DNA from: Squalus acanthias
Taxonomy: Eukaryota
DNA: 64,000 nt
NCBI GenBank assembly: GCA_030390025.1
Contig: CM059432.1
Span: 91,266,001 to 91,330,000, forward strand
Reading direction: 5' to 3'
In this document: positions 1,348 to 64,000 of the stretch, piece after piece
Layout: every line of letters begins with the position of its first letter
How positions within the stretch are numbered: the first letter of the stretch is position 1
Made by a program: the position numbers and the translations under genes
Notes under the pieces: model-generated
Told to the model about the DNA's origin: nothing
Database searches by the model: none
The model's input: the letters and a program-made list of their open reading frames with translations, nothing else

Positions 1348-2241
1348 GGGGGAAAAATTTAGTTGGTTGCACCTCCTGTTAGCGCCTTAAGAGGGTGCTA
1401 ATGGGGCGCAAATCATCTAGCGCCCAGGCACGGCGATATTTGCGCCACTCGCGAAATTAACTAGACATTTTGCGGCGACGCTAAACACTACCGCCACGAT
1501 CTCCTGCGCCGGCAGATCGTGACGTCAGTCAAGTGCGCAACGCCCCGGTATCGCCACGGAGCGGATATTGAGTGGCGCCCCCTGCCTTACCGCCTGACGC
1601 TAGCAACGACAGGTTGAGGGGAGCGTTTTGCAGTCATGAAGGGGCTGAGGGAGCGCTATTTAAAGGCGACCGCTGCCTGCCTTTTATTGTTGGTGCCATT
1701 TTTGAACCACGCATTCTGAGAGAGAGGGAGAGAGACTTCTGGAGAGATTCAACGCTGTGTGAAGGAGTTTTGGGTACTGAGCAGCACTTTGCAGGTTCAT
1801 TTTGATTTGCCCTTCCTTGTATCAATTTAGAAGAGGCTGTGGGGGCTGCACTCTGAGCTCTTTCCCTGGTACTCTCCATTGTTCTTTCCAGCAGATTTGA
1901 TGTACAGGTCTCTCCAGGCCAAGATTCAAGGCTGCAATGAGCAGGATGTGGATGGAAAGCAAGATCAACCATTCCCCTTTAAGAACTGGTCCATGCCATT
2001 GTGTGTGTGTTCCATTGCTGACTGACATCACATGAGCTTCGCCAGCGCTCTGAGGTAGCACCTCGCTCCTCGGTCTTTGCACCTTAAGAAAGGTGTGAAG
2101 CGCCTGATTTAGCGCTCCAATCACCTCCAGGGGCAATAAAAGTCAAGTTTGCAGTCGGTGGCGATAATTAGCGCCAGGCGCTAATCTTTGCGCCCGGCCG
2201 ATAATTGCGCCCCAAATGGGGCGATACTGAATTTCTCCCCC
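1348..2241 (+). mobile_element. Non-autonomous PIF/Harbinger element (894 bp), copy A
   Basis: TIRs GGGGGAAAAATTTAGT / ACTGAATTTCTCCCCC. TAA target-site duplication at 1345-1347 and 2242-2244. Near-identical copy at 59068-59962. Confidence 0.92.
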
Positions 2242-4016: not shown

Positions 4017-4679
4017 TAGGGCTACCCCCCTCCTTTTCCATTCTGCCTGTCTTTTCTAAACATCAAGTACCCTGGAATATTTAGTTCCCAACCTTGGACA
4101 CCTTGCAACCACGGGGGCGATTTTCCCAGCCCCAAGGAGGCGGGTTTGGAGGCAGGACAGTTGGCAAAATGGCAAAAACGGAAGGCGGATTCGGAACCCG
4201 CCTCCAACCCGCCTTTACGCAATTTTGCCGGAGGTGGGTTTGATAGGTGTGATTCGGTCCTGCCTCCATCAGTCGGGAGAGGTAGTTAAGACCCTTAAAT
4301 AGTAGTTAAGGGCCTCTATAATCCTATTTTGACAGGCCTTTGTTATTTTGCCACATTTTGTCCATGTTGCACGACCCTCCTAAACCACGCCAGCTAATCC
4401 TGGCGGTTGACAAGTGGGTGGCCTCCTCACAGCTGCAGCTCCACCATTAAAACGGAGCTTTCATCAGGGATCAGTTGCAGGTGGCAGAACTTTTGTTCCA
4501 CAGGTCTTTCAGCACTTTTAGCAGGCCTACCAAAGTCAGAGGTGCTGCAGCTTCTATCTCTCAACTGTGGGACCTCCTTGGAAGACCCTCTCCCCGCTTG
4601 ACTGAGCGCTTCCCCAACGGAGCTATCTGCCAGAAACCTGGGACCATTTATTTCCTTTCACCATGGATCTCAGATTCGG

Positions 4680-5833
4680 ATGAGGAGCAAGCCACGGCAG
4701 CAGCAGAACCAGGCAGCTCAGCAGCAACAGCAGCAGGAGCCCCAACCTCCTGCTCAGCCACCTGATGCTGCACAGGGCAGAAGGCGCCAGCGCATGGAAG
4801 CACGTCGCCGCAGGAGATACCCCCCCTCTCAGGGTTTACAGACAGAGGATGAGCTACCTCAACATGAGTGAGCAGCAGTGCCAAAGGAGGCTGAGACTTT
4901 CGCGACTGGTTGTCGGAGACATCTGCGCACTACTGCACCAACACCTGGAGCCCAGAGGAGCGGGTGGACACCCCTTACCAGTGGCTGTCAAGCTCACCAC
5001 TGCACTCAACTTTTTTGCCTCAGGCTCCTTCCAGGGATCATCAGCAGACATCAGCGGCATCTCCCAGTCGGCCACCCACAGTTGCATCATGCAGGTTACC
5101 GACGCCCTTTTCGCAAAGGCACACAATTACATCCATTTCTCAAAGGATCAAGCAAGTGAAACCGCGCGTTCAGTTGGCTTTGCAAATATGGCAGGCTTGC
5201 CAATGGTGCAGGGCGTCATAGACTGTACACATGTGGCCCTTAGGACACCCCATCAAAACCCAGCTATCTTTGTCAACCGCAAGGGCTTCCACTCCCTCAA
5301 CGTACAGCTGGTGCATAACCACAAGAAGTTCTGTGGTAGTTGCCATGACTCTTTCATCCTGCGGAACTCTAGTGTTCCTCCGCTCTTCAATCTGCCAAAC
5401 CAACTTAACAGATGGCTCCTTGGTGACAAGGCTACCCCCTGAAGAAGTGGCTAATGACACCGATCAGGAGGCCTGCTAACGAGGCTGAAGAGCGCTACAA
5501 CGCCAGCCACATTTCGACCAGGTCCATCATCGAGCAAACCATTGGCTTGCTGAAGATGCGATTCCGATGCCTTGACAGATCAGGTGGAGCCCTGCAGTAT
5601 TCAGCAGCCAGGATCTCCAGAATGGTCGTGGTCTGCTGTGCACTGCACAACATGGCACAGCATCGTGGCTTGCAGCTTCCTGATGAGCAGTGGCTCAGTT
5701 CATAGCCTCCTCAGATGAGGAGGAGGAGGAGGAGGACTGAGCGGTGGCATATCTACCAGCAGCAGCAGCAGCACGCGAGCACATGGCTGCCCGTGATGCA
5801 AGGGATGCACTCATCCTGGCCAGATTTGCATAG
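4680..5833 (+). pseudogene. HARBI1-like Harbinger DDE transposase, frameshifted
   Basis: ORFs 4765-5442 and 5454-5705 contain [45 protein letters not shown] and [22 protein letters not shown]. Several frameshifts; an acidic tail ends at TAG 5831-5833. Confidence 0.92.
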
Positions 5834-6074
5834 GTTACCCATTGTGGCACATGTGCTTGGCTCCTTCTTAACACATGATAGACAATGGACATGACTCGCT
5901 GGCCTCCTTTCACTCTGACCACCAATCTGACCACGCAAGTGTCGCGGAGCCCACAATGTGGAGCTGCCTAAACCGAAATAACAGATGCCATCACGCCAAC
6001 AGTTTGCCATCTCCTAATTTTAATACATTCACACAGGAATGGCATTTCATCAATAAACAGAAACAATCACCCAA

Positions 6075-6260
6075 TCTGCACACAGATCTGGAGGTTATAT
6101 CCCTTGCCAGCTGGACCCACACAGCCTTGGTTTCTTTGGGAGGCCTCTTCCTCCCAAATGAGGGGAAGAGCACCTCCCTGCTAGCTCTCACCCCCTCAAA
6201 CAGCATACCCAGTGCCTCATCCAAGAACCTCGGGGAGACCCTTGCCTTGGAGCTGGCCAT
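6075..6260 (-). pseudogene. Truncated Myb/SANT-like DNA-binding protein gene of Harbinger C
   Basis: MASSKARVSPRFLDEALGMLFEGVRASREVLFPSFGRKRPPKETKAVWVQLARDI. Homologous to the other Myb-like ORFs in this window; cut by an internal deletion. Confidence 0.85.
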
Positions 6261-7659
6261 TCTTCAATCAGATAAAAGTTTGGAGGTGGTGCACCATCGA
6301 CCAAAAACCAATGGAAGAGCCAAGGCAGCAAGCAGCCCTTAAATGAAGCTGGATAAGTGACGTCAGCAGAGGCGAGTTTCAGTCCCAAAACACTAATTGG
6401 CCCGGGGTACCCACACCTCTGAAATCAACTGGCCAATTAGGGGAAAATCGCAAATTTTTCCCACCTGACAGTGGAGGCGGGTTTGGAACCCACCCAAACC
6501 GAAACCCGCCTCCAACCCGCCTCCATTGGGAAAATCGCGCCCCACGTCTCTGTAATGGCTATTAGATCAAAGCCATTTATCTCTATTTGTGTCATTAATT
6601 CATCTATCTTGTTACGAATGCTTCATGCATTCAGATAATGAGCCTTTAATTTTAACTTTTTATCATTATTCCCTGCTTTCACCTTATTCGCTGATGCACT
6701 TTTACCATTAAACTCCCAGTCCCTTCCTGTCACACTCTGCTTATCTTTACTATAATCGCTACACTGCTCCATTGCTTGACTTTTCTCTTTAGATTTCTAA
6801 ATTTCCCTTCACCTGACACCTCCCCACTTTTTTAGTTTAAAGCCCTCTCTACAGCCCTAGTTACTCGATTCGCCAGGACACTGGTCTCAGCCCGGTTTAA
6901 GTGGAGACCGTCCCAACGGAACAGCTCCCTCTTTCCCTAGTACTGGTGCCAGTGCCCCATGAATAGACGTTTGAGTTTGGATGTAATGTCCTCCCCTGGT
7001 TGAACAGCGTGCCAATAGTCATTTCCTAAGGCTACAGATGTAGAATGGTCACTTGGGCAAAGTGAGGAAGGCAACCAATACCCCAGCAAGGAGTCAATGC
7101 TTTCAAAAGGGGAGATAATTAGCAAAAAAAGGAAGGGAAAAAGCAAATAAAGGGAAGAAAGAAAACAAATCAGGTGCATAAGATCATAAATTTATGACAA
7201 AAAATGCTTACAATTTTCCAAAAAGGATATGAAAGAAAAGGTGTTCTTGTAGGTGTGTGCAGGGTGGGAGGCAGAGTAGCACTTGAGCCCAAGAATCTGG
7301 CCTCCTAGATTTTAACTGGAAGGCTGATGCTTGATGTAGGCCCATGGGACTGCTACCTGCCAATCATATTGCAATAACATGCTATTTCAAAAATGACTGA
7401 AAACACTGAAGACGCTTGACTGCCTTTAGTATTTAGATACTTTGGTACATTATTAAATGCACCTTATATCAATGTATTGTAAATTGTCATATTGTAAATG
7501 CAATACTCAATGAGGCCAGCAGGAACAATATTGAATTTCCCGAATTTGTAAGATCTCCATCTGTTACTTTTTCTCATTCTATATTATCTATTTCTACCTA
7601 CAATGAATATTCATATAGCAGGATTACCTGACATTATAATTACTTAGAAGTTAAGCGCA

Positions 7660-10607: not shown

Positions 10608-10917
10608 AGTGTGCAACGCTCAATTAACGCACGATCTACAATTTTTGCGTTTGCACTCCACTTACCGGCCTGTGTTAATCACAACCAGCTGACCAAGCGT
10701 TCGCTAGCAGGACGGAGCCTCCAGCAGCGCTATTTAATCATCAACAACTCACAGCTGACATGGTTTCTCAGTTTGATTGGCTCTGTGTAACTTTCTGCAA
10801 CTCTTGCAACTTTCTAAATTTGTTTAAAGTTCTGGAGGTGACAGGGCGTGTTGGTGCAAGTGGAGAATGCCTTCATTCTTATTTAAAGGCTTCTGCTCAC
10901 AATACTTGCTCACAGTC

Positions 10918-12085
10918 ATGGGGGCTCTACTGGCAGTCCTGCTCATGCTCGAGTAACATAGGGAGAGGGAGCAGAGACAGCGAAGAAGAGGAGACGATGC
11001 TCACAAAGGGAGGAGGTAGAGGGCCAGGAGAGCTCTCAACAGAAGGCTTTACCCACTTAGGGTCTTCAGAGAGCACTTCTCCTACCTCCACTTAAGCGAG
11101 GAGCAGTGTATTAGGAGGCTCCGCTTCACCAAGGAGGTGGTCACAGAACTCTGCCACCTTCTGCAACCAGACCTCCAGCCTCGGAGCACGGTGAACATGG
11201 CTCTCCCAGTAGCCCTCAAGGTCACCGTGGCCCTCAATTTCTTCGCCAGTGGATCCTTCCAGTCTGCAGCACGAGACATAGCTATCATCTCATAGTTCGT
11301 CATCCATTGCTGCAGCCGGGAGGTCACAGAGGCTCTCTAAACCAGGAGAAGGAACTTCATTGTCTTCTCTCTGAACAGAGAGAAGCAGGAGGAGTGGCAT
11401 GTGGCTTTGCCAGGATATTGGGCTTCCCCATGGCGCAGGGCGCCAGCGACTGCACCCACGTGGCTTTGCGGGCACCGTATACCAATCCTGAGATCTTCCG
11501 TAACCGCAAAGGTTACCACTCACTTAATGTGAAATTGTTGTGTGACCACACCCAGCGCTTCCTGATGGTCAATGCCTGCTATCCTAGCAGCAGCCATGAT
11601 GCCTTCATCCTGCGTCAGTCCAGTATGCCAGCAATCTTCCAGCCAGTGCGTCAAACCATAGTGGGGGCTGATCGGAGACAAGGGCTTTCTGCTCTCCACC
11701 TGGCTCATGACTCCCCTACGCAACCCCACCACACCCGCCCAGCACTCATATAATGACAGCATGCTGCCACCAGGAACATCATTGAGCAGACCATTGGTTT
11801 CTGACGGAACGGTTCCGCTGCCTTGACTGCTCGAGAGGAGCCCTCCAGTACTTGCCGGAGTGGGTGTCTCATTTCGAGGTGGTCCGCTGCATGCGTCACA
11901 ACTTGGCCATCACGTGGGCACAGCCCTTGCCATCAGGGATTGTGGGACCACCTTATGAGGAGGACAAGGGGGAGGAAGAGGAAGATGAAGAGAAGGCGGA
12001 CGAGGAGGAAGAGAAGAGGCAGGCAGCAAATCCCCCTTCTGGGCGGGCTGTCCGTGAACACCTCATCAGATGCCGATTCGAGTGA
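10918..12085 (+). pseudogene. HARBI1-like transposase of Harbinger F (stops and frameshifts)
   Basis: ATG at 10918. Motifs [74 protein letters not shown]; acidic tail; stop at 12085. Confidence 0.9.
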
Positions 12086-13232
12086 ATGAAACCCCAGATC
12101 CCTGTTGCTCACCACGTCCCCATCATACCGTCCCTCTGTCACAGGCATCACAGCACCCTTCGGGACACAAAGCTGACATGAGAGCCACAACAAAACAAAC
12201 ATTCCAAACAAAATGAATAAATTTATCAGTATTCAATTAACATTACAATATGAACTAATCATCCTTGTGCAATCCCTTAGTGCCTGTCGTTCATGTGCCT
12301 TTTCCTACTCTAGTGCTCCCGCAGTGACTGCAGCATGGTTGGTGGAAGGTTGCTGAGTTCCCGTGGGGGAGACTACAGATGACCTTGCAGGATGACCTCG
12401 AGCTGCTCTGGACCTGGAAGGCCCGGCTGTAGACTGCACCACCTCGGCATGGGTGACCGCAGTCTGGGCTGGCTGGCTGACGGGCAGCGGCAAGGGCAAT
12501 GCCGGAGTGGCAGTGGTGGGAACAGGAATGCTGTCATCCTGAGAGAGGACAGCAGGGTCCTGCTCCACAGACACACTGCCACTCCCCCAGTGCAGCGCCT
12601 CAGCATTCCTAGCGATCTGTTGGAGCAGAGATTGCTGGCCTGCTACGATACCTTGCAAACCCCTTTCGACACTGGTAAATCCAGCTGCAATTCCAGCAGT
12701 CTGAGCTTGGGTGTCAGCAAGCTGAGCCTGCAGGAGAGCAGTCTGAGCTTTCACTGTAGCACTGAGACGTTGGGCCGTTGCCGCCTGTGCTGCAATGGAA
12801 GCCGTGACATCGCCCATCACACGCAGTATCATGGCTGAGTTCACAAGGTCTCTCCTGGAGTTGTCCATCATTTCCAGCCTGGAAATCATGGGCTCCAGGC
12901 TCTGCGCAAAGGCCCGTCCAATGTTGGTGCTGGACTCCTCCATCCTTCTTGCCATTGCCAAGAGACTCTCTGCCAGGCTTGCTATTGCACCTAGTATTTT
13001 GGTGTGATGGCCGCCCCATCGAGGTATCATCTGAGTCGTGTGTAGCAGAACTCATGCGCGAACTCGCCCTCCAGGGAGCTGGCACCCGAGCTACCCTTTC
13101 CCCCTGGCCTTGCTGCAGTCCACTCGTGCCCGGTGCCTCACCCTGTGCAGATCCTGCCTCTTTACCACCCTCTACGCTCTGCGCAATGTCAGCTTCTGAG
13201 CTGGTGTCTGCAGTGTTAGATGCAGTGACGGT

Positions 13233-13395
13233 TAATGTTTTATTTTTTGGATGCGTAGCCCCTTTAAGGGGCTGCGTGACCCATTCACAAGTTTTGCACA
13301 TGAAACTAACATTAAAAAAGCTTTAAGGGGCTGTGCGGGACTGGCAGAGAACTGCGCATCTATGTGACCGCGCAGCTTATAAGGAACATTCATTG
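13233..13395. mobile_element. hAT-like MITE (~163 bp) inserted in Myb exon 3
   Basis: 8-bp TSD gtgacggt (13225-13232) / gtgatggt (13396-13403). Decayed CAATGTT...AACATTG-type ends. Related copy at 57581-57742. Confidence 0.65.
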
Positions 13396-13568
13396 GTGAT
13401 GGTGTGTCTTCTTTCCCACTCTCCTCCATCACTTCGGGGACAGGCTCGCCTGCTGGCAGTTCTTGGTTATCTGAAAGCAGAAAGGCACAAGAGTTGGGTT
13501 GTGGTGAGGGGAGGGGGGGCGGGGGGGAAAGCAAGATGTCCATGCATACAGCATCAGCAGCTTATAAG

Positions 13569-14718
13569 TTTTTTTTTTATTCGTTCATGGGATGTGGGTG
13601 TTGCTGGCAAGGCCAGCATTTATTGCCCATCCCTAATTGCCCTTGAGAAAGTGGTGGTGAGCAGCCTTCTTGAACCGCTGCAGTCCGTGTGGTGAAGGTA
13701 CTCCCACAGGGCTGTTAGGTAGGGAGTTCCAGGATTTTGACCCAGCGACGATGAAGGAACAGCGATATATTTCCAAGTCAGGATGGTGTGTGACTTTAAG
13801 GGGAACTTGGAGGTGATGGTGTTCCCATGTGCCTGCTGCCCTTGTCCTTCTAGGTGGAAGAGGTCGCGGGTTTGGGAGGTGCTGCCGAAGAAGCCTTGGC
13901 GGGTTGTTGCAGTGCATCTTGTAGATGGTACACACTGCAGCCATGGTACGCCGGTGGTGGAGGGAGTGAATGTTTAAGGTGGTGGATGGTGTGCCAATCA
14001 AGCGGGCTGCTTTGTCCTGGATGGTGTCGAGCTTCTTGAGTGTTGTTGGGGTTGCACTCATCCAGGCAAGTGGAGAGTATTCCATCACACTACTTACTTG
14101 TGCCTTGTAGATGGTGGAAAGTTCTTTGGGGAGTCAGGAGGTGAGACACTCGCCGCAGAATACCTAGCCTCTGACCTGCTCTTGTTGTCACAGTATTTAT
14201 GTGGCTGGTCCAGTTAAGTTTCTGGTCAATGGTGACCCCCAGGATGTTGCTAGTGGGGGATTCAGCGATGGTAATGCCGTTGAATATCAAGGGGAGATGG
14301 TTAGACTCTCGCTTGTTGGAGATAATCATTGCCTAGCACTTGTGTGGCGCGAATGTTACCTGCCACTTATCAGCCCAAGCCTGAACGTCGTCCGGGTCTT
14401 GTTGCATGCGGGCATGGACTGCTTCATTATCTGAGGAGTTGTGAATGGCGCTGAACACTGTGCAGTCATCAACGAACATCCCATTTCTGACCTTATGTTG
14501 GAGGGAAGGTCATTGATGAAGCAGCTGAAGATGGTTGGGCCTAGGACACTGCCCTGAGGAACTCCTGCAGCGATGTCCTGGGGTTATGATGATTGACTTT
14601 CAACCACCACAACCATCTTCCTTTGTGCGAGGTATGACTCCAGCCAGTGGAGCGTTTTCCCCCCGATTCCCATTGACTTCAGTTTTACTAGGGCTCCTTG
14701 ATGCCACACTCGGTCAAA
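13569..14718 (-). mobile_element. 5'-truncated CR1/L2-supergroup LINE with A-rich tail, in Myb intron 2
   Basis: ORFs 14090-14329 and 13633-14088 (ILGVTIDQKLNWTSHI, MEYSPLAWMS, LDTIQDKAARLI). T-run at 13569-13578 is the minus-strand A tail. Confidence 0.9.
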
Positions 14719-16624
14719 AGTGAGAAGAGATTGTGGGATGAGGGGGAAGTGGGATGTATGACCATACCATTATTGTCATCAAGGGCTTCACCTTCGCCTG
14801 TTGTCATGACCTCAGTTACTTCCCCTCCAATGATGTTGAGCACGGACTCCTCCAGTTGGCTCAAGGTCTGAACAGCGGCTTGGCCACTTCCCATCTGCCG
14901 TTGTTCATGGCAGTTCTGAGCCACTTTTGCCTGCAAGAGAAAGGGAAGTGTGTCAGTGAGTGTGGTGCAATGTGTTTGGGTGATGTGCCTGCCATAGTTG
15001 AATAGCTGTCAGTGTGTGCAAGGTGTGAGATGTGGGTGTGAGTGTTGCAGCAGTGTGTGAGGCTTGTGGTGCAGATGGTGGGATATGGCATTTGCTGAAG
15101 CCTTCACTCACCTTGACCTGACGTGTGAGGTCATTAAACTTCTTTCAGCACTGGTTCCACATCCTTGGCACGACACAGTTGGCTGTGACATAGGTAGCTA
15201 TCGCCTGCCAGAGCCTTCTACTGGTAGCCTTTGATGGCCTCCTGCCACCCTGCGGGAACAGGACACCCCACCTTATCTCAACTACGATGACCAAGGCCTG
15301 GAGTGCAGCATCCGTAAACCTTTTGGCTCTTTCTCTGGGTTGTTGTTGCTGTGCCATGGTTTTAGACAATGAGGTGCTGCTGCATCAAAGCTCTTCCCCT
15401 TTAAGTAGTGGAGAGCGCCTAGGCCAAACATTATTGGCCATTAGATTGCACCTGATATTGGCCCACCCGTGAGCGCTAAGCCAATCAACATCGTGTTTAG
15501 CGCTGAGATCAGTGCTCCAATCATTATAATGAGCAGGCAGCATGAATTACCTATGAAATCCTATGTAAATTTTGCATGCTGTCTGGACCACTTTCAACAG
15601 GTGCAGGCAAATAGCGCTGGCCCTTGACACTGCCCGTTTTCAGTCTAATCCAATTTCTAGGCCAGAATTTTTATTTTAGGTTTCCTTGTGGGCCAGGAGG
15701 AGCAAGAGTGCTTCTAGGTCTCTTTAGAACTTACCTATTCAATGTGCCTACGCCATCTTCCCCAACTCTCCTTCCTAATCCTACCTAGGTCTGACTTCCA
15801 CTTTAGGAAATGTTTTGGGCCATTTTGCTGCATTAAAGCTGCTGTCTAAGTGCAAGTACCCATTGCCATGAGTAAATACTATAAAAATGGAGGGATTACT
15901 TGCCACTCCCTTGCTAAGGATTTAAAGAAGGGAGAAAAATAACACATGAAGGAAGTTAGAGTAATCGTTTGAAGTTGTTTAAAATTTGGGATATCACAAG
16001 AACCAAATTGTCACATTGCGACAATGTAAAAATTACTGGCAAAATTGAGAATGTTACAATAAAATCATAATAGCTGGTTTACAGGTTTGTGTTTAACAGT
16101 AAGTGCTGATTAGATCATGGGATGGAGAGGAATGAACAGGAGGAGCTGCTTAACTCAGCGGTGTGAGTGAATTGAACTGACAGGAGTAGATTCAGATATT
16201 AAATCCAGGTGCCTCAGCAAGCTTACCATATAAATTGCACATGACGGATAATTATACGAATTCGCGCCACCAGGAGTGCACAATGTGGGTGCGTGCTTTC
16301 CAACACAGATTCATAAAATTATCCCTATGAATTTAACTTCTTAGCATTTCATCTTCTAGTCATGTGGCAGAATATCAGTGTTTTATTTGCCGTAGAATAA
16401 TTTTTAAAATCAAGGCCTTTTTGACCCTGTAATGACAGTAATGTACATAACTAATGATGGCTCCTTTTTAAACTATCCTCCCTGAACTCAATCTCTACTA
16501 TAGCATCCATTTATTGAAACTAATGTTACTTTAATAGAAAAAAGATGAAAACTTTGCTCTTGGTTTGCTATCACTCCACTGTGTAGAGTGACCAGCCAAA
16601 CTCCACCCTGGATTCAACAGCTGA

Positions 16625-19402: not shown

Positions 19403-20156
19403 GGGGGAGAAATTCGGCTGCTTTGCATCCCCCATTAGCGCCTGGGGGGCGCGGTAATGGGGCGCTAAGGGGTTAGCGACTGGGCGTGGCGAATTCAGCG
19501 ACGCTCGTGAACTTCCCTGCCGGTTTAGCACTGGCGCTAACACTTACCACCTCGCCCTCTAGCGCCTCGCAAATCGTGACGTCATAAAGTGTGCAGCGTC
19601 CCGTTACCGCCCTGGATGTGAAATTGCTTCCTGCCCCCTGCTGTATCGCCGGGCGTCAGCAACGGCAGGAAGAGGAGGCATTGTCACATTGGCTGGCCAC
19701 TTGGGGAGCGCGAATTAAAGGCAGTGGTTTTCAGGTCGGTCAAACTTTATTCTTTGCACCAGTCTGGTGCCTGCTGAAAGTTTTCGATACTTTGTTGCTG
19801 CGAGATGTCCAAGCCCCCCACTCTCTGACAGTGTTTGAGGCTGTAATGGCAGTCGCGCAGGTCGCCTGGCAACACAGCACTGAGCAGAAGTATGTTGTGC
19901 ACCATCATTGGCCCTTCCCTTTAAGCGAGGGAAGCAGCCTCCGATGCTCGACATTGTTCAGCGCTCTGCTGCTACCACCCCGCTCTCGCATTTTAGCGCC
20001 CTAAGAGAAGTGGTTAGCGTTTGATTTAGTGTTCCACTTCCCACTTGGAGCGCTAAAGCTCAATTTCCTGGGAGCAGAAAATGATTATCGCCTGGCGATA
20101 CCTTTCTGAGATTTCAATTTATCGCCCCAAATGGGGCGCTATGGAATTTCTAGCCC
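19403..20156 (+). mobile_element. Non-autonomous Harbinger-like element B related to A and M
   Basis: TIRs GGGGGAGAAATTC / GAATTTCTAGCCC. Subterminal TAGCGCC repeats and TGACGTCA as in copy A. Flanked by AT/AT. Confidence 0.85.
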
Positions 20157-29114: not shown

Positions 29115-29260
29115 GGGGTAGAAATACGTCTTGGGCGGTAGCAGAAAGTTGGAGGAATTGCATGGACTGCCTGTTATATGGCCCGCCTGATATTCAGTTC
29201 CATTGAGGTCAATGTGGTGTTGCCCATCTTACATTACCATCCAAGATAAATTTCTAACCC
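29115..29260. mobile_element. 146-bp MITE
   Basis: TIRs GGGGTAGAAAT / ATTTCTAACCC, extending imperfectly inward. Flanks caat / attg. Confidence 0.7.
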
Positions 29261-44113: not shown

Positions 44114-44792
44114 AGAGTAGCTGTGAGAGAATCTCCCAGAATTCACAATATAAACACAGCAAAAATGTATTCAAATCTTTCCCTACATCAAAGACACACT
44201 AAGAGCACAGCCAAGACAATGAGATGTGTCCAAGAGTTACCTGTACTTGGCATGTGAGGACTGCCGAGTCTGAATTCAATCCCTGTTGTTGACATCATAA
44301 CATTCTACTGTCAGTTCTTGAGACACAAGTATATCGGGTACAATTTTGAAAGGCTCTGTTTAAATAAGTCCACCATCGATACTCATTCAAAAATTCAGGA
44401 AATAAATACATTGATCATAACTATCATATTGATGAAAAGGATTTTTCTCCAGTTGAGTATTGTAAAGCACTTTGGCCTAGAAATTTAGCTTCGTAGTGCC
44501 CGATTTTTCGGCGCTGTTGGTGCTGTTTTGTGTCAAAAATGGTGTCTCCGCCACCGTGCACACTTCTGGTGCGGGCCGCACCGGGCACCATTTTGGTGAA
44601 GTCATTTGCGTCGGTGCAGGGAGCGTGCAGGGAAGGTTGCAAAATACGCAGATCGTGACGTCTATAACGCTGATTTAACGCCAGCGCTGCCATTTCTGAC
44701 CTCAACGCTGGAGCTACGCCCTCACTTAACCTCCCACAGCTGAACATGCAGCAGGAAGGACTCACCACCAGCGCTATTTAAAGGGATCATCA

Positions 44793-45620
44793 TTTTTCTT
44801 TTTAATTCATTCATGGGATGTGGGCGTCGCTGGCAACGCCAGCAATTATTGCCCCTCCCTAATTGCCCTTGAGAAGGTGGTGGTGAGCCGCCTTCTTGAA
44901 CCGCTGCAGTCCTTGTGGTGAAGGTACTCCCACAGTGCTGTTAGGGAGGGAGTTCCAGGATTTTGACCCAGTGATAATGAAGGAACAGCGATATATTTCC
45001 AAGTCAGAATGGTGTGTGACTTGGAGGGGAACTTGGAGGTGGTGGTGGTCCCATGTGCCTGCTGCCCTTGTCCTTCTAGGTGGTAGAGGTCACGGGTTGG
45101 GAGGTGCTGTCGAAGAAGCCTTGGCGAGTTGCTATAGTGCATCTTGTAGATGGTACACACTGCAGCCACGGTACTCCGGTGGTGGAGGGAGTGAATATTT
45201 AAGGTGGTGGATGGGGTGCCAATCAAGCGGGCTGCTTTGTCTTGGATGGTGTTGAGCTTCTTGAGTGTTGTTGGAGCTGCACTCATCCAGGCAAGTGGAG
45301 AGTATTCCATCACACTCCTGACTTGTGCCTTGTAGATGGTGGAAAGGCTTTGGGGAGTCAGGAGGTGAGACACTCGCTACAGAATACCCAGCCTCTGACC
45401 TGCTCTTGTTGCCACAGTATTTATGTGGCTGGTCCAGTTAAGTTTCTGGTCAATGGTGACCCCCAGGATATTGATGGTGGGGGATTCGGCGATGATAATG
45501 CCGTTGAATGTGGTTAGACGCTCGCTTGTTGGAGATAGTCATTGCCTGGCACTTGTGGGGCGCGAATGTTACCTGCCACTTATCAGCCCTGAATATTGTC
45601 CTGGTCTTGCTGCATGCGGG
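44793..45620 (-). mobile_element. 5'-truncated LINE (family of 13569-14718)
   Basis: ORF 44846-45373 YKAQVRSVMEYSPLAWMSAAPTTLKKL; T-rich tail at 44793-44803. Confidence 0.9.
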
Positions 45621-46376
45621 CTTTCTGGTTAGATGCTGATTGATTTCTATTGGCTCTTGGTGAGTTTGTAGAGGTGTTTCTTGGTTTGGTGTCTTATTTG
45701 AAGTGACTGAAACCTCAGGGGAGTGGTGTGGCAGGTTATTCAAGGCTTCTGCTTAGACCAGTTGCTCCCAGACATGGGTCGGTGCAGGAGCGTGCGCTGG
45801 AAGTTTGCAGAGTACGCAGTTCATGACATCAATAACGCTGATTTGATGCCAGCGCTGCCATTTTTGACCTCAACGCTGGAGCTAATACCCTCTCTTAACC
45901 TCCCACAGCTGAACATGCGTTCAGCAGCAAAAAGGGCTCCCCACCAACGCTATTTAAAGGGATCATCACCTGCTTTCAGGTTAGATGCTGATTGATTTCT
46001 ACTGGCTCTTGGTGAGTTTGTAGAGGTGTTTCTTGCTTTGGGGGGAAAAATTCAGTATCGACCATTTTGGGGTGCTAACATTGCCCGGGTGCAAACTTTA
46101 GCGCTGGCAACCGTAAAATTGAGTTTTAGTGCCCCAAGAGGGAAGTGGGGCGCTAAATCAAGCGCTACACTTATCTTAGGGCGCTAACGTCGGGGAGCCG
46201 GGCGCTACTGCAGAGCGCTAATCAAGTTCAGGCGCTGTCAATTACAAGTACTCAGAAAGACTGGCGCCTTCCAGTTCTTAAAGGGGAGGTTCAATCATGC
46301 TGCACAGCCTCACTCTGATCATTGCTGCTTGTGACCTGGGCCTGCAAGGAGGTGCAATCCATCAACTACAAATCTC

Positions 46377-48256
46377 ATGGCTGATCAGAGGCCCAAGGAG
46401 AGAGCTCGCCGGTTCAGCGACCAGGCATTGGAGGCTCTGGTTGCGGCTGTGGGACGCCGGCGGGCAGTGCTGTTCCCAGACACTGGCAGGAGGCCATTGC
46501 CGCAGGAGTTCAGAAGGATGTGGCGGGAGGTGGCCCAGTACATCTCGGTCAGAAGCGTGGTCCACAAGACTCAAACCCAGTGCTGCAAGAAGTTCAACGA
46601 CCTCAGTCGGGTGGTCAGGCTGAGTACATGCTTCAAAAACCTCTACATCCCACCATCTCAACCTCACTCTGTGCACAGATGGTATAAACCACCAAATCCC
46701 CCAAACTATGCCCATCTACTAAAAGTCACATCCACATCTCACGCCTTGCATATATTAACAGCTATTCAACTATGGTAGGCACATCTTCCAAACACATGGC
46801 TGCACATTCACTCACATGCTGTCCTTTTTCTTCCAGACCAAGCTTGCTCATAACAAGAGGGAGCAGCAATGCACGGGAGGAGGTCAGGTGGAGCTGCTCC
46901 CCCTTACACAGCTGGAGGTGCGCGTGCACAGCATCATCGTGGCCCAGGTTGTGGGCGCTGTGGCAGTTGGAGAGGTCCACCCCCTTGGGGACAACAACGG
47001 TATGTTCATCAGCTCTCCCTCTTCTCTCATACCACTTCCCCCTCACAACACAAGCCCTTCCCACTTTCTATCCAAGTGTACTGTCTCCATTCCTTGCTCT
47101 CTTCCTGCCCCCCTCCCTTGATGTTAAACCCACTCTTGTGCCTTTATGCTTTCAGATAATCAGCCACCATCTGACCAGCCTGTCCCTCAGCCTCCTAGTG
47201 GTAGCGATGCGGGAGAGGAGGAGGAACACCAAGCCGGAGCCTCACTGCCTGTGTCTCCCGAGGGCGAGACATCCGATAATGGGACCACGCGGTTGCTGGA
47301 GGGGAGCAGAGGAAATGGCTCTGATGTGGGTGAAGCTCCAGGACCCAGCGGGCTGCAGCAATGCCATCGGGAAAGGGAAGCTCGGGGGCCATCTCCCTGG
47401 AGGATGACTGTGCACACGAGTTCTGCTGCACAGGACTCAGATGAGGACCTTGGTGTCGAGGCCATGACCACACAGGCAATGAGCCTGCATACTGAGCTCA
47501 TGGGTGCAATAGCAAGGGTGCCCGAGAGCATGGATGCACTGGTTAGGAGCGTGGAGGAGTCTGCCTCCAGCATTGTTCTCATCTCTGCACAAACCTTCGA
47601 GCCCATCCTTGGCACTTTGCAGAGGATGGCTGACTCGCAGAGACCTCATGCCGCGTGTCATGGGTGAGGTGGCAGCAGCTATTGCAGCACAGGCTGAGGC
47701 AACGCAACGGCTTAGTGCTATAATGGAGTCAGTGGTTGGTGGCATTCAATCTCAGACTGCTCTCATGCAGTCTCAGATTGATGCCACGCAAGCGCTGACT
47801 GCTGCCATCATTGCTGGGTCGCCCACAGTCCACCGGGGACCTCATGGTGCTGCAGCAGGCCAGCAATCTGTGCTCGAGCAGATTGCTCCAGATGCTGAGG
47901 TTCTACTCCGGGGGAGTGGCAGTGTGTTGGACGAGCAGGAAGGTGCTGTCCTCTCTCAGGATGACAGCATTCCTGCTCCCACCACTGCCACTGCGCCATT
48001 GCACTTGCCGCAGCCTGTAACCCAGCCATCCCAAGCTGCTGCCGACCATGCTGAGGTGGTGCAGTCTACAGCCGGGCCTTCCAGGCCTAGAGTTGGTTGA
48101 GGTCGTCCTGCAAGGCCATCTGCAGTCCCTGGCTCCCAGACTCAGCAGCCTTCCGCCAGTCTTGCTGCAGCTACTGGGGCCACATTACGGAGGAGCAGTA
48201 GGGTTGGGAGGGGGGAATTGCAAAGGGGAGGGAAATCATTGAGGAAGGCCCAGTAA
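46377..48256 (+). pseudogene. Three-exon Myb/SANT-like (NAIF1-type) partner gene of Harbinger M
   Basis: Exon 1, 46377-46619 (RERARRFSDQALEALV...WREVA...QCCKKFNDL), has its donor mutated to CTGAGT. Exon 2 is 46837-46999. Exon 3 starts at 47156, with a frameshift at ~47645 and TGA at 48098-48100. TAA at 48254-48256 is followed by AATAAA. Confidence 0.88.
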
Positions 48257-48557
48257 ATAAAATGTTAATAACAAATGGGGGAGTGTGTGTACAAAAGTTG
48301 ATGTGTTTGTAAATATATTGTTCAGTTTGGTAAGAAATAGTTCCGTTTGCTAAGAACCAGTTGTGTTTGTTCATAAATTGTTGTGTTTGTTTATTATTGG
48401 TTGTGTTTGATAAGAGAGAGTTGTGCAGAATAATAAATGTTTATTTCGACGTAGCAAATTTTGTGATGTTTCTCATTTGAGCTTTGCCCGGTGATAGGGG
48501 CTGCGAGCTGGCTGTAATGATGCGGTTGTTCTGCGCAAATGCCATGTGCTGTCTCAT

Positions 48558-49722
48558 TTATTGGAAGCGCTGTATAATGAGGCGATCACGAACAGCCCTT
48601 GCAGAAGCAACATTGATTAGCTCCCTCCTACGTTGGTGCTGCTCCTCCCCTCTTCTTCCTCCTCCTCCTCCTCCTGTCCCTCTTCCTCCTCCTGAGGTGG
48701 ACCTGCAATCCCTGGTGGCAATGGCTGGGCCCTCAGAATGGCCGGGTTGTGCAGCATGCAGCACACAACAATGAAAAGGGAGACTCGATCAGGGGAGTAC
48801 TGCAGGGCTCCTCCAGAGTGGTCAAGACAGTGGAACCGTTGCTTTAGCACGCTGATAGTCTGTTCAATCAGGTTCCTGGTGGTGCTATGGCTCTCATTGT
48901 ATGTGTGCTGAGCAGGAGTGTTGGGGTTGCGGAGGGGTGTCATCAGCCAGGTGGCAAGCGGATAACCCTTGTTGCTGAGCAGCCAGCCGCGAGCTTCATG
49001 TGGTGGTTGGAACAGTGCTGGGACACCAGTCTGTCGCAGGATGAATGCAACGTGGCTGCTGCCAGGATAGCGGGCATTGACGGCGAGGATGCGCTGTCTG
49101 TGGTCGCACACCAACTGCATGTTCAGAGAGTGGTAGCCTTTGCGGTTACGGAACTCCTCTGCATTGTGATGTGGTGCCCGCAATGCCCCGTGGGTGCAGT
49201 CAGTGGCGCCCTGAACCATGGGGAAGCCTGCTATCCTTGCAAAGCCACATGAGCGTTCATGCTGTTTGTCTCTGGTCATGGGGAATGAGATGTACTCCCT
49301 TCTCCTTCTGTAGAGAGCGTCTGTTACCTCCTGGATGCAGCAATGGACGGCGAACTGTGAAATGTTTGCAATATCCCCTGTTGAAGCTTGGAAGGAGCCA
49401 CTGGCATAGAAATTGAGAGCGACTGTGACCTTCACTGCCATTGATACGTCCTGGTCCTGAGCTGAAGCTGGAGCTCTGGCTGCAGGAGGTGGCAGAGCTC
49501 TGTGACCACCTCCTTACTGAAGCAGAGCTTTCTAAGGCACTGCTCCTCTGACAGATGAATGTAGGAGAAGTGATCCCGGAATACGCTGGGAGGGTAAGGC
49601 CTCCTGTTGAGAGCCCTGTTGGCCCTCCTCCCTCTGGCCACGTTTTCCAATCTTTCTCTCTGCCTCCGCTGCCTCCGACGGTGAAGCTGGAGGGTGAGGT
49701 CCTGTGCCAGTACAGCCCCCAT
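48558..49722 (-). pseudogene. HARBI1-like transposase of Harbinger M
   Basis: ORFs 49432-49749, 48617-49441 and 48558-48764 join by two frameshifts. Motifs VALNFYASGSFQ, GATDCTH, NRKGYHSLNMQLV, LLSNKGYPL (second catalytic D appears as N), IEQTI, CCMLHN. Confidence 0.93.
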
Positions 49723-50454
49723 TAAGTGTTGGAAATGTTGCAATATCAAAAGTAAGACAAATGAACCTGATAAATTTTTGTCAGGAGCAAAACTCCTTCA
49801 AGCAGGAAAACCTCAATTGGGTCAAAACGCCTGTCAGCTTCTGTCAAAGTGACGAGGCAGCATTGTTTGCCGACAAAAAAAACAGGAAGTTCACACCTTT
49901 AAATAGCGCTCCTGCAGCTCCCAGCCGACTGCAAACTGCCTCCTCTACCTGTTGTACCTAACGACAGGCGCTGAGGCAGGGGGCAAAAATGGATTTCCAG
50001 TCCGGGTTACTACCGAGGCGATGCGCGGCTGGATGACGTCACGATCTCCGGACGCAGGAGATTGTGGCAGTAGTGCTTAGCACCACCGCAAACCGTCAGG
50101 TGAATTTCGCCGGCAGTGCTAACATCACCACGCCCGGGCGGTAAGTCATTAGCGCCCCCCAGAGGGACTAATGGGAGGTGCTAACCAACCAAATTTCTCC
50201 CCCTTGGTGTCTTATTGAAGTTGCTGAAGTCTCAAGGGAGTGGTGTGGCAGGTTAATCAAGGCTTCTGCTCAGACCAGTTGCTCCCAGACATGGTGCTGT
50301 AGTTTGTATCCCCCTTTGCCTGCAGCATGATAGGGATAATGAGCAGAGGTGACACAAAGGAGGACAAGCTGCTTGAAGAGGGAGGAGTAGGAGGGGGAGA
50401 AGTGACCCCAACAGGAGGCGATATCCACCCAGGGTCTTCAGGGAGCAATTCGCC

Positions 50455-51371
50455 CGTGCAAAGTTGGTGCTGGACTCCTGCACGCTCCTTGACATTGCAC
50501 TTTCTGGCAGGCCTGCCAACACACAAAGCATTTCATTGTGCATATGCATCAGCCTTCATCTGTAGGCCGTCCCATCAAAGTCCTCATATGAGTCCTCTGC
50601 AGCAGAACTTGTGTACGACCTCGCTCTCCAGGGAGCTGGCATGTGCGCTACCTATGGATGTGAGAAGGAGAATCAGGTATGAGGATACCGTCATCTTGGA
50701 TTGTTTCATCCTCATTTCTGGCTACAGGCTCAGTGATGGCCGCTCCAATTACCTCCAGCACAGTCTTCTCCATGGGGGTTAGGCCATGCAGGCATGCTTA
50801 TTTCCCTGCGGGGAGCCCCTGCTGCCTCCGGTTATGAGCCACATAGCCCTGCAAGAGGAAGGGAAGTGTGTCAGTGAGTGTGGTGCAATGTGTTTGGGTG
50901 ATGTGGCTGTCATGGTTGAATAGCTGGCAGTGTGTGCATGCTGTGAGATGTGGGTGAGGCTTGCAGTAGTGGTAAGTGTGTGAGGGTGAGGTGAAGCTAT
51001 GATTGTGAGGGATGAGTTGCGTTTGATAGAGATTGATGGTACGTGAGTGATGGGGCTGTGGTGCACTGCGCAGTTTGTGAGGCTAGTGGTGCAGATGGTG
51101 GGATATGGCATTTGAAGATGAAGTCACTGACCTTGACCATTCGTGTGAGGTCATTGAACTTCTTCCTACACTGCATCCAGGTCCTCGTGGCTACACTGCT
51201 TTCATTGACAGCGACGGCTATCTGCTCCCATTCCCTTCTCAGCATCTGTCTGGAGGGCCTCCTGGCCCCCTGTGGATAGAGGACACCTCTCCTCCTGTCC
51301 ATCTCCTGCACCAGAGCCTCGAGTGCTGCATCAGAAAATCTAGTAACTCTCTTTCTGCCATATTGTGCCAT
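50455..51371 (-). pseudogene. Myb/SANT-like gene remnant of Harbinger L
   Basis: MAQYGRKRVTRFSDAALEALVQEMDRRRGVLYP...WEQIA...RTWMQCRKKFNDLTRMVK, then an intron and deleted exons 2-3. Confidence 0.88.
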
Positions 51372-51671
51372 CTTTATACTTCCTGTAGCTCACACACTCC
51401 TATACAACAACTTCCAGCACCTGCTGCAGCCAGAATCCACCTCCCCTTTAAGAGTATAAAGGCTGGCTATAAGAAGTGCTGGCTAGCTTTAATTGGTGCA
51501 CAAACTTGGGTCCCCTGCTGAAGCATGTAGCCATTCAACAGTGTGTTTAGCGTAGGGCTGTATGCTGCAGTTTTTTAAATTAGCAAGCAGCATTGGAAAC
51601 AACGGGCACGGGGTAGTCGCGCATCACGGTACCCGCGCCTGTTTTCGGGCCTTATCCAATTACTCGGCCCC

Positions 51672-52763: not shown

Positions 52764-54143
52764 GGCTGCGATTTCGCCGGCCGAGGCGGGTTCAGTCGTT
52801 GTCGGCATACGGTCCCACTGCCTACTGAAGCCCGCCGAAAAAAAGGATTTTATGTAAATGGGCCTTGTTAAGCCCGCCCGTCGCATTCCCCGACCCTATT
52901 AGAAAGTGCGGGTCAGGTGACGTCAACGCTGACGCTTCCCTTGCCGGTTTATTTAAAGGGCCCATAGCCCCACTTCATTCAACTTCCTGAATTTGAAACG
53001 AGCATTGCTGAGATAGCTTGTTCAACCCAAAAATGAGCTCACAAAGGTAGAGGGCTGCACCTCGATTCACTAATGACTCCCTCCATGTTCTTGTGGAGGG
53101 AGTCAGAGCACGCAGGGAGTTTCTCTTCCCTGCCAATGGTCGGAAGAGACCTCCCCAGGAGACCAAGGCAGCCTGGCTGCAAATAGTTGAGGAGGACACA
53201 AGCAGGGATGTCGTCAGGAGGACCAGGCTGCAGTGTGCAGTGGCGCAAACCTTTCAATGATCTCAGTAGATCACGAAACGTTACTGCAAAGCCACTCATC
53301 ACATCCCCATCACTCTGCCTTCCCTACCCTACTCCTGCACATCCTTACTCACACCAACTTACCTTGCACCTCCACCCATCCCTCTGTATCTACATTATCA
53401 CTTCTCCATCTCACTAGCCACCCCTCACACTCACCCTCATCCTAGTCCAATCATACCAACTAACAACACACAAAGGTAGGCACTTGGGTGGTTTAGCCAA
53501 TGTTCATGTAAAGTTTCTGGTAATGTGCTGTCAAACATTGAAATCTTTATTTTCAACACTTTGCATTCTTGGACAGATTTGTGTGCACCTTTGGAAGTGG
53601 CTTAGTGAGTTGCAGTGAATGGTGAGACATAACGGTACCCCCCGTAATGGTGATGAGTGTGAAAGGAATGGCTTGGGCATTGTAGGGATGCTTTATGGTG
53701 TTGGTGTGGGGTGGTGCCAACCTGGCGCATTATGTGGCAACCAGGGTGTAGAGCGTACATGGGAAGGGAAGAGGACCTCCCTGCGTGCTGTGACTCCCTC
53801 CATAAGCATATGGAGGGAGTCATGGGAGAGCCTGGGTGCAGCCGTGCACCTCTGTGCAGTGTTTGTCAGTGTTTGCAGCACCTCAATGCTGTAGAACACT
53901 GACAGCACAAATATTAAAATAAAGTTGGCCATGGTCCCTTTAAGGAAATCGGTTGATGATACGTCATCAAATGATGTCACCAGACCCGCTTCCTCTAATT
54001 GGCTGGGAAATGCGCTGGGCGGGCTTAACAAGCCCAATCAGGGGAAAATCATTTCAGAGGCCGGGATGGAGCCAGCAGCGGGGTCGGGACCCGCCACTGA
54101 TGTCGCCCGTCACGGACCTGCTGAGGTTCGTAAAATCCAGCCC
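52764..54143. mobile_element. Harbinger-derived element N with two inward-facing Myb 5' fragments and no transposase
   Basis: Plus-strand Myb from ATG 53033 (RAAPRFTNDSLHVLVEGVRARREFLFP) and minus-strand Myb at ~53870-53760 (AAPRLSHDSLHMLMEGVTARREVLFP). Right end GTAAAATCCAGCCC; left end degenerate. Confidence 0.75.
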
Positions 54144-59067: not shown

Positions 59068-59962
59068 GGGGGAAAAATTCAGTTGGTTGCGCCTCCCGTT
59101 AGCGCCTTAAGAGGGCGCCAATGGGGCGCAAAGCAACTAGCGCCCGGGCGCGGCGATGTTTGCGCCACTCGCGAAATTAACTAGACATTTTGCGGTGGCG
59201 CTAAACACTACCGCCACGATCTCCTGCGCCGGCAGATCGTGACGTCAGTCGAGTGCGCAACGTCCCTGTAGCGCCCCGGAGCGGATATTGAGTGGCGCCC
59301 CCTGCCTTACCGCCTACCGCTAGCAACGACAGGTTGAGGGGAGCGTTTTGCAGTCAGGAAGGGACTGGGGGAGCGCTATTTAAAGGCGACCGCTTCCTGC
59401 CTTTTATTGTTGGTGACATTTTTGAACCATGCATTCTGAGAGAGAGAGAGAGAGAGACTTCTGAAGAGATTCAACGCTGTGTGAAGGAGTTTTGGGTACT
59501 GAGCAGCACTTTGCAGGTTCATTTTGATTTGCCCTTCCTTGTATCGATTTAGAAGAGATTGTGGGGGCTGCACTCTGAGCTCTTTCCCTGGGCCTCTCCA
59601 TTGTTCTTTCCAGCAGATTTGATGTACAGGTCTCTCCAGGCCGAGATTCAAGGCTGCAATGAGCAGGATGTGGATGGAAAGCAAGATCAACCCTCCCCTT
59701 TAAGAACTGGCCGGCGCCATTGTGTGTGTGTTCCATTGCTGACTGACATCACATGAGCTTCGCCAGCGCTCTGAGGTAGCGCCTCACTCCTCGGCCTTTG
59801 CGCCTTAAGACAGGTGTGAAGCGCCTGATTTAGCGCTCCAATCACCTCCAGGGTCGATAAAAGTCAAGTTTGCAGTCGGAGGCGATAATTAGCGCCAGGC
59901 GCTAATCTTTGCGCCCGGCCGATAATTGCGCCCCAAATGGGGCGATACTGAATTTCTCCCCC
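59068..59962 (+). mobile_element. Non-autonomous PIF/Harbinger element (895 bp), copy A-prime, in a SERINC intron
   Basis: TIRs GGGGGAAAAATTCAGT / ACTGAATTTCTCCCCC. TTA TSD at 59065-59067 and 59963-59965. Confidence 0.93.
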
Positions 59963-61913: not shown

Positions 61914-62432
61914 CTGAAAGCAAAATACAAATTAAGAAGGTTTATTATTACTGTGTAGTAAAATATAACTTAATCTTCATCAAAAATAAATTATTTCATG
62001 CAGGTACATCATTCCATAATTAATGCATTCTATCCAGAAGCATGTCTTGGTACAGAGTTTATTGTAGTACTATTCGTACAGCAATAAATCTCTCTTCCAG
62101 CTTCAAACCCAAGGTCATAGCCAAAGAGGCCAGAATGCATTTGTAAAGTGCTTAATTACAAATAATAACTTCTTATTGAGAATATTTTTTACTGCAATTA
62201 TATCCCTCAGAAAATGATTTGCTTATTATTATGCATTAGAACATTACTCCTGACTAATCAAGAGTGTTCATTAAAAAAAGTAATTTCCTTTTTGACATGC
62301 AAACAAATTCCAGTGTTCTACGTAACTAGTTTCTAAAAAGGTCAGTATCTTAATATAATTGTGACAAAAATGACAACAGTTTTATCTCTTTTAGTCTGCT
62401 AGATATTCCTTTAATTTCAGACACCATACATA

Positions 62433-64000
62433 GGCCAGAAAACCAAAAGAGCCTGGCTGGATATAGCTGAGGAGGTCAGCAGCAGGGATGTGGTGAGGAG
62501 GACCTGGATACGGTGCAGGAAACGATTCAATGATCTGATAAGATCAGGAAAGGTGAGTGCAATGCCACACCCACACTCACCTTCATCCTGATGTGCCTGT
62601 CAACACATCCCCATCACTCTGCCTTCCCAAGCCTACTCCTGCACATCATTCCTCAACACCAACATACCTTGCACGCCACCCATCCCTCTCTCTCTACGTA
62701 CATACTCACATCCCCACCTGACTAACCACCCCTCACACACACCCTCACCCTAATGCAATCATAGCAAGTAACACCACAGAAAGAGGCCATTTGGCATTGT
62801 CACCCCACTCCCTCATAGTCACCCTCTACATATGTAATCTATCCATTCCTTACACTCGTTCCATCACTCTCACTCAAACTTCTCTTCTTTCCCTCTTTGC
62901 AGGAGAAAACAGCCCAGAACACACGGGAGAGACAGAGAACTGGAGGTGGCCCTTCAGTCTTCACCCAACTAACAGCAGGAGAAGAGGGGGCTCTGGAGAT
63001 TTCGGGAGTTTGAGAGACACTGGCGGTGGGAGAGGAAAGAGGGGGACATCCCAGCAACCTGGTGACAGAATCACATCTCATACAACAGTCACTCACATGG
63101 TGATTGATGTTAGCAACCAGTGAAATGCCATCATGTACATAATGATAACATTACCCATTCTTATTATAACACTTCTAATTCATCTCTTTACTCTCCCACA
63201 GGTCCATCAACTGCTCCCCCCGCCGCCCCCTCCACTGTCCAGCCGGAGGAGAAAGACAACTCCTCAGAGGAACCTCCAGCCTCTGAGTGTGCAGCGTCAG
63301 CAGACCCAAGCGCACCCAGCACCAGCGCAGATACACACACTTCGGTGGGTCCTTTGCACCATAGAGGTGTCTCACAATTTCACAAGTGAGCAAGAGCAGG
63401 TGGCGTTGACAGGGACAGCAGTGGAGACTCCTCGCCGGAGGGCGCAGGACACTCCAAGCTCTGCTGAGCTGTATGCTGAGCCTCCGTGGCCATCCAGAAA
63501 GAGGGTGATCTTGGAGGGGGCAGCAACAATTGCATGAGGCTCTGACATCTTTTGCAGCTGTGATGTCTGCAAATGTTCAGAGAATGGAGGAGTCCATCTC
63601 CAACATGAGCATCACCATGTCGCAGGCGATGGCGATGATGTGCTGTTCCATGGAAAGGATGGCCACCTGCATGGAGCAGCAAATGCACCACTCACGAGAT
63701 GTCATTCTGTCACATGCTAGCTGTGGACAACAGATGGCAGGTGCTCATAGACCTCCTCTCAAGGAGGGATGTAACCGGAGACTTGGGCGTTCATTGCCCC
63801 ACTGCTGTGCAGCAAGTACGGGTGGTCCATGAGAGGGATGATAGTGAGAGGGGTCATGGAAGTGGGGGCTCTTCTCAAAGTGCTCCCCCATTGCCTCCCC
63901 CTCAGTCAGAGCCCCACATGCTTCCTCGAATCCTGATGGCTGAGTCTGCACAGTTGCAGGGGGAGCAGACTTTGGCGGGCCATCACAGGCTCCAAAACCC
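62433..64000 (+). pseudogene. Harbinger Myb/SANT-like gene remnant (three exons), antisense within a SERINC intron and running off the window
   Basis: KTKRAWLDIAEEVSSRDVVRRTWIRCRKRFNDLIRSGK|GTGAGT (exon ends 62552). Exon 2 is 62903-63061 (EKTAQNTRERQRTGGG). Exon 3 starts at 63202. Confidence 0.85.

Follow-up and report, generated by a model that had tools for sequence, protein, structure and literature searches.

Element M, a PIF/Harbinger transposon, occupies positions 46041–50203 of a 64,000-nucleotide stretch of the Squalus acanthias genome (contig CM059432.1 of assembly GCA_030390025.1, positions 91,266,001 to 91,330,000). This whole stretch is referred to here as the window, and all positions given are positions within it. 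M is a full-length copy with both terminal inverted repeats (TIRs) present and two genes inside. The window also contains three short elements of the miniature inverted-repeat transposable element (MITE) kind, A, A' and B, which were claimed in an original prediction to be M's own MITE family, with M itself only a few repairs from an active element. The evidence presented here indicates instead, with a probability that we put at about 0.8, that M was once autonomous and is now a dead copy from a shark PIF/Harbinger family of high copy number, and that A and A' come from a related, distinct family.

The termini of M, GGGGGA(A/G)AAATT, agree with each other at 11 of 12 bases, and TTG lies directly outside the element on both sides. 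An older Harbinger, element L, contains a short tandem duplication whose second unit carries M and whose first unit (45620–45777) is an empty site, in which the two flanks of M meet over one TTG with no element between. This paralogue is identical to the left flank of M at 66 of 69 bases and to the right flank at about 91% over 92 bases. The TTG target-site duplication is therefore proven within the window, and the pair of TIRs with an exact duplication that had been predicted for M stands. Both flanks are also joined without M in contigs from three of four sequencing runs (joints 46031 to 50215), and loose contig ends at 46040, 46041 and 50205 mark other insertion sites of M-type ends. A TIR score of 12/14 with a 3-bp duplication is found in the window only for A and A', and in none of 10 Markov controls. 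M scores 11/14, a level that the controls also attain, so the case for M rests on the empty site and the genes. The insertion point is in the upstream region of the transposase of L. The tandem duplication covers some 350 bases around the TATA-like box of that transposase; one unit (44607–45777) took a piece of a long interspersed nuclear element (LINE) and the other (45775–50294) took M.

The two genes of M converge on an A+T-rich spacer (Table 1). The transposase, on the minus strand, matches the Pfam family DDE_Tnp_4 (PF13359, E=5.7e-34), and the Myb/SANT protein, on the plus strand, matches Myb_DNA-bind_5 (PF13873) above the cut-off (E=1.1e-5). The exon limits of the Myb-like gene coincide with the splice sites of elements C and L, and a 554-aa protein of Pristiophorus japonicus is colinear over exons 1, 2 and 3, through the frameshift and the TGA. 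The prediction of a DDE transposase together with a three-exon Myb/SANT-like gene is borne out by these three lines of evidence. A DDE_Tnp_4-type transposase with a second, Myb/SANT gene, and short TIRs that start with G beside a 3-bp duplication, are the marks of PIF/Harbinger elements (PHIS superfamily), and M has all of them. None of the 15 joints listed, out of 109, corresponds to a predicted intron of M, and in two runs that are RNA only by guess, short contigs fall on introns as well as on exons. Among solved structures none resembled the M transposase in sequence (best E=0.21), and Rfam had no match anywhere in the window. Myb exon 1 and a portion of exon 3 had no match in a word-indexed protein search; a full HMMER scan gave 35 hits.

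Table 1. Features of element M, of the element that hosts it and of other Harbinger elements in the window.
Feature	Position	Strand	Basis
Left target-site duplication TTG	46038..46040	+	single TTG in empty-site paralogue
Left TIR of M, Myb-gene end	46041..46052	+	11/12 against right TIR
TATA-like motif before Myb-like gene, also in A, A', C, L	46277..46286	+	motif; putative promoter
Myb-like gene exon 1, 81 codons, Myb/SANT domain	46377..46619	+	PF13873, shark homologue
Intron 1, donor CT against GT in C and L	46620..46836	+	comparison with C, L
Myb-like gene exon 2	46837..46999	+	tblastn, C/L comparison, shark homologue
Intron 2, GT..AG intact	47000..47155	+	C/L comparison
Myb-like gene exon 3; frameshift ~47640-47660, premature TGA 48098-48100, terminal TAA 48254-48256	47156..48256	+
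A+T-rich spacer, AATAAA signals on both strands	48256..48562	.	signals presumably used
DDE transposase gene; frameshifts ~49445-49460, 48630-48650	48558..49722	-	PF13359
Transposase acidic residues: Asp kept; conserved Asp to Val; Asp to Asn; Glu kept	49201; 49051; 48973; 48865	-
TATA-like TATTTAAA before transposase, also in A, A', C, L	49898..49905	-	motif; putative function
Right TIR of M, transposase end	50192..50203	-	11/12 against left TIR
Right target-site duplication TTG	50204..50206	+	flank comparison
Empty-site paralogue of M insertion point, tandem duplication in host element L	45620..45777	+	flank alignment
Host element L, older, internally deleted Harbinger; right end estimated	44474..51669	.
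L genes: transposase start (+); Myb gene (-)	50293-50484; from ~51368	+; -
MITE A, TAA duplication, 894 bases, probable deletion derivative of sister family	1348..2241	.
MITE A', TTA duplication, 895 bases, first codons of Myb-like gene retained	59068..59962	.
MITE B, of a third family at similar distances from A and M, without a clean 3-bp duplication	19403..20156	.
Element C, decayed two-gene Harbinger of another family, LINE piece inside; left end estimated	10650..15663	.
Element F, transposase 4777-5681 (+), Myb remnant 6230-6057 (-); ends estimated	4113..6490	.
Element N, fold-back, Myb remnant 53057-53239; ends estimated	52858..54143	.
Myb remnant related to N	62430..62806	+	tblastn

The M transposase has 103 homologues, nearly all named HARBI1-like, and the best are shark and ray models, with up to 72% identity in P. 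japonicus. In a tree made by a quick method from 45 of the 103 homologues with M and F (C was dropped as too short), M falls among P. japonicus proteins in an elasmobranch-only clade of 35 rows with a support of 99. Sixteen DNA-type runs under 8 organism codes each contain 0.24–0.43 of the sampled words of M, and none contains half. Run X1, which is from another organism, has 34,592 contigs on the 4721-base stretch with M, although summed depth is not a copy number. In raw reads of a ninth organism, 29 partial reads of 10 million match the same stretch. The family is very abundant and lineage-restricted, and with so many contigs in X1 it is plausible that its consensus can be rebuilt from many copies. 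Single X1 contigs skip about 2.3 kb of the interior of M (joints 47244–49586 and 47247–49596), which may represent deletion derivatives of M's own family, resembling L in structure.

How far has M decayed? Every lesion that had been listed is present in the sequence: three frameshifts, a TGA at 48098, a CT donor at 46620 and an Asp to Asn change at 48973. They had been taken for only a handful, yet the majority letter in X1 differs from M at 277 of 4721 places (5.9%, flanks included), and 11 of 146 conserved transposase columns are altered. When this is scaled to the 2672 coding bases, an estimated 157 or so substitutions and about 120 amino-acid changes are expected in M, which is not a few repairs from an active element. 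A 31-mer check is in agreement, with 0.45 of the words expected to be found at 5.9% divergence and saturating copy number and 0.43 found. From M to X1, 128 changes are A>G or T>C against 42 G>A or C>T (p=3e-11), the bias expected if M has lost methylated cytosines. The coding test drew on the 40 best-supported listed places of the 487 that differ in X1; 18 of 24 listed coding differences are non-synonymous, in line with the neutral expectation of 75.6%, and the result has p=0.001 under a ratio of non-synonymous to synonymous rates (dN/dS) of 0.24. The latter value is that of the older divergence between M and element C, over 232 codons. A second conserved Asp (S-H-D motif), an Asp in 67 of 103 homologues, is Val in M, and at the base concerned more than 99% of X1 depth disagrees with M. 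Which residue is the second catalytic Asp is judged from PIF/Harbinger alignments; both candidate Asp residues are changed in M. An active autonomous Harbinger has two intact open reading frames and an intact DDE triad, and M has neither. It represents a dead member of its family well, but is far from being an active copy.

Some observations weigh against this degree of decay. The X1 majority belongs to a different organism (the best run has 0.43 of the words of M) and pools all subfamilies within 85%, and differences between subfamilies may therefore account for part of the 5.9%. Of the 19 listed A>G/T>C changes, only 6 are in a CpG context. The sites of the TGA, the donor and the Asp to Asn change are absent from the 40 listed of 487 differing places. 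In addition, when the 70 columns of highest conservation are compared, 87 of 94 annotated shark-type homologues show more damage than M, a comparison that is biased since M is the query.

The lesions also bear on whether M could be a transposase/Myb pair that was domesticated as HARBI1 and NAIF1 were, the two genes lying side by side and their homologues being named 'putative nuclease HARBI1' by the sources. Such a pair would be a single copy with intact frames under purifying selection, a combination that M does not show. It has three frameshifts, a stop, a dead donor and a neutral pattern of decay, it keeps its TIRs and duplication, its related copies are very many, and L-type contigs lack it. 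Unless they are errors of the assembly, the broken frames rule domestication out, and we regard it as extremely improbable.

Is M, if not domesticated, a near-intact master copy of which A, A' and B are the deletion derivatives? Or did the MITEs arise elsewhere? Of the autonomous elements in the window, M is by a wide margin the nearest to A; it is full length with both TIRs and an exact duplication, and keeps the first Asp and the Glu of the triad. Comparisons of A with the ends of M score 783–990, against 124–236 for 11 other candidate ends in the window and at most 200 in 30 shuffles; none of these candidates matches the A-type ends better. The first 500 bases of A track the transposase end of M to about the start codon, and the last 400 track its Myb end, with about 9 codons of the Myb-like gene kept. 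A and A' are identical at 847 of 893 aligned bases (94.8%; Kimura two-parameter distance, K2P, 0.054), and from their structure they appear to be internal-deletion derivatives of a two-gene Harbinger.

The predicted kinship of A and M is thus upheld, but A is not M's own MITE family. Descent from the family of M predicts about 91% identity (5.9% decay of M plus half of the A–A' distance, 0.027), whereas the ends of A and M are only 72–74% identical (K2P 0.32–0.36). With gaps counted, the identity of A, A' and B to the ends of M is 57–67% (72–74% ungapped), below the 80% used as a same-family rule. Corrected for decay, the distance between the M and A consensuses comes by arithmetic to about 0.24 substitutions per site. 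The distance of B from A (K2P 0.36) is no smaller than that from M (0.32–0.35). It has the M-type motif at one end only, the other being GGGCTAGAAATT, and its flanks TAT/ATT form no duplication, so that the sharing of ends with M, which had been claimed for all three, holds in full only for A and A'. On these distances M, A and B are three related families. Depth over M, from related copies within 85%, peaks in the genes with no increase at the ends, and of the 109 joints the 15 listed include none that links the two ends of M; no abundant MITE within 85% of M's ends is therefore seen. An A-type contig in run X18 departs from M after about 32 bases (loose end 46072). With some 120 amino-acid changes expected in M as well, the master-copy explanation is very improbable, and the distance between A and M already largely refutes it.

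The flanks of M, A and A' were the first to be seen as similar, and a motif was then tested in 8 paired elements that had been picked by their termini, not their flanks. In their 16 half-sites, A is found at -4 in 13 (p=1e-5) and a pyrimidine at -1 in 14 (p=0.002). This motif is common to all Harbinger families in the window and so does not tie A to M. Another explanation has A coming from a sister family and yet being amplified in trans by M-family proteins, as mPing is by Pong. A and M have their 12-bp termini in common, the first 32 bases at the Myb end are alike, and on one side their flanks share 8 of 10 bases. Cross-mobilisation is documented at 62% and 77% protein identity (PMC2836001). 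However, A and A' are about half as diverged as M, which calls for a younger source, and the motif, general as it is, does not single out M. Amplification by M's family is a possibility that we consider doubtful.

Outside the central triplet, the flank motif of the window resembles the target consensus AAACACCWGGTCTTT reported for the zebrafish element Harbinger3_DR. This consensus is matched by the left flank of A' (AAACAC) and by the right flanks of M (GTGTCTT), B (GTCTTC) and the element at 29115 (GTCTTT), while the central triplets are TTG, TAA and TTA in the window and CWG in Harbinger3_DR. In three elements, at 19403–20156, 29115–29260 and 40426–41168, the 3-bp flanks mismatch (TAT/ATT, AAT/ATT and AAT/ATT) and AT adjoins both sides. 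These could be accounted for by a duplication of 2 bp, AT, or by one and the same drift having occurred three times.

While the family of M was active, its Myb-like protein would have attached to the ends and recruited the DDE transposase, by analogy with Harbinger3_DR and Ping/Pong. The transposase would have excised the element and inserted it at a W-rich triplet in an A-N-N-Y / R-N-N-T flank, duplicating 3 bases. M landed upstream of the transposase of the older L, where the duplicated TTG is visible, and has since decayed neutrally by the roughly 6% seen against another organism's copies. A and A' would derive from a related but distinct autonomous family, of which the window has no member, through loss of the interior between roughly codon 10 of the Myb-like gene and roughly the start of the transposase, and the distances suggest that they moved more recently than M.

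Harbinger elements are numerous in the window. Fourteen segments were delimited, several with estimated ends; they cover 22,384 bases (35%), with M and two nested pieces of LINE counted in. The expansion of several distinct families here is confirmed, and tblastn confirms the remains of homologous genes in elements C, F, L and N as well as at 62430. The predicted total of about 17 elements is compatible with the 14 segments and several unpaired termini, and is plausible. Unpaired termini were not counted as elements, since a loose terminus scan had 34 hits where 5 controls had 9–22. The transposase of C has 74% DNA identity to that of M. Two related non-coding Harbinger-type elements (8508–9342 and 9805–10620), which are 76% identical, inverted and 462 bases apart, form a long fold-back. 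Two 91%-identical LINE 3' pieces each lie within a Harbinger, one in intron 2 of the Myb-like gene of C (13569–14413) and one in the first unit of the L duplication (44795–45621). Pfam had no hit for either piece, and we take them to be LINEs from their reading frames. Open frames of 130–146 codons outside recognised repeats, at 34026–34470 and 63124–63576, could be host exons.

Among the transposase homologues, four small clades stand out in which each species of shark or ray has a single sequence and the branches are short. They comprise Pristis, Scyliorhinus canicula, Stegostoma and Chiloscyllium (82–90%); S. torazame and Rhincodon (89%); Heptranchias, Carcharodon, Narcine and Mobula (70–85%); and Mobula and Narcine (84%). 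The last acidic residue is gone in all members of three of the four. By their sequences these clades look like elasmobranch domesticated Harbinger transposases besides HARBI1, of which there is no mention in the available part of PMC9392472. Myb-like homologues P0109 and P0123 have over 90% identity across rays (Hypanus, Mobula and Hemitrygon) and across Rhincodon and Stegostoma, which makes them candidates for domesticated partners.

The zebrafish elements Harbinger3_DR and Harbinger3N_DR, of which the primary study is reportedly that of Sinzelle et al. 2008, offer the nearest description of how an element like M would work. Harbinger3_DR has a two-protein mechanism, a 3-bp duplication and an extended target, and was rebuilt from a consensus (PMC2836001, PMC3016246). 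Likened by description only, it shares with M a transposase plus a Myb-like gene, a 3-bp duplication and a non-autonomous derivative (PMC2836001, PMC3016246, PMC9392472). Within the PHIS superfamily, it is the type of duplication that defines each group (PMC4482050). As in PIF/Harbinger, NuwaI and NuwaII, M has DDE and Myb/SANT frames, a length comparable to ~4.1–4.5 kb and short TIRs, with the GGG start of NuwaI. Its TTG has no exact fit among TWA, CWG and C|TNA|G, though a single copy cannot define a family consensus; A (TAA) and A' (TTA) fit the TWA of the narrow PIF/Harbinger group and half-fit C|TNA|G (PMC4482050). The CWG of the NuwaI group is found at none of the 8 paired elements in the window. 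In rice Ping, mPing and Pong, a MITE likewise derives by internal deletion from a two-gene element and relatives cross-mobilise, but the parent of mPing is at hand whereas that of A is absent from the window; Ping becomes much less active when a single residue of the triad is lost (PMC2836001). Harbinger-Snek of sea kraits resembles the shark elements in its heavy lineage-specific expansion with solo-frame and short non-autonomous variants, and differs in having intact copies, 269 in one species, where M is a broken one (PMC8437027).

Harbingers in sharks, and a rebuilt zebrafish Harbinger (PMC2836001, PMC3016246), are already known. A 2022 survey found no Harbingers in elephant shark and called for a look at other cartilaginous fish (PMC9179366). 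In shark genome papers of the same time or later, Harbingers figure only in repeat tables (PMC8455134, PMC12498223); they are listed for whale shark, and in the grey reef shark they are the commonest of the DNA transposons (1.58% in all). A literature search found no paper devoted to shark Harbinger families; most subscription papers, Repbase Reports and supplements were outside its scope, and repeat tables may list such families.

As a single decayed copy M is of little importance, and its value is that of a marker. The window as a whole shows several distinct Harbinger families with a zebrafish-like target motif, and a family that is present under at least 8 organism codes and nearly absent from a ninth organism. 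It also carries a warning, that similar ends do not assign a MITE to the neighbouring autonomous element. A rebuilt member of the family might, we suggest tentatively, be a second working vertebrate Harbinger, with a zebrafish-type flank motif and a tolerance for several central triplets, able to move sister MITEs such as A, and the same clade might have given rise to several domesticated transposase genes of sharks and rays beyond HARBI1.

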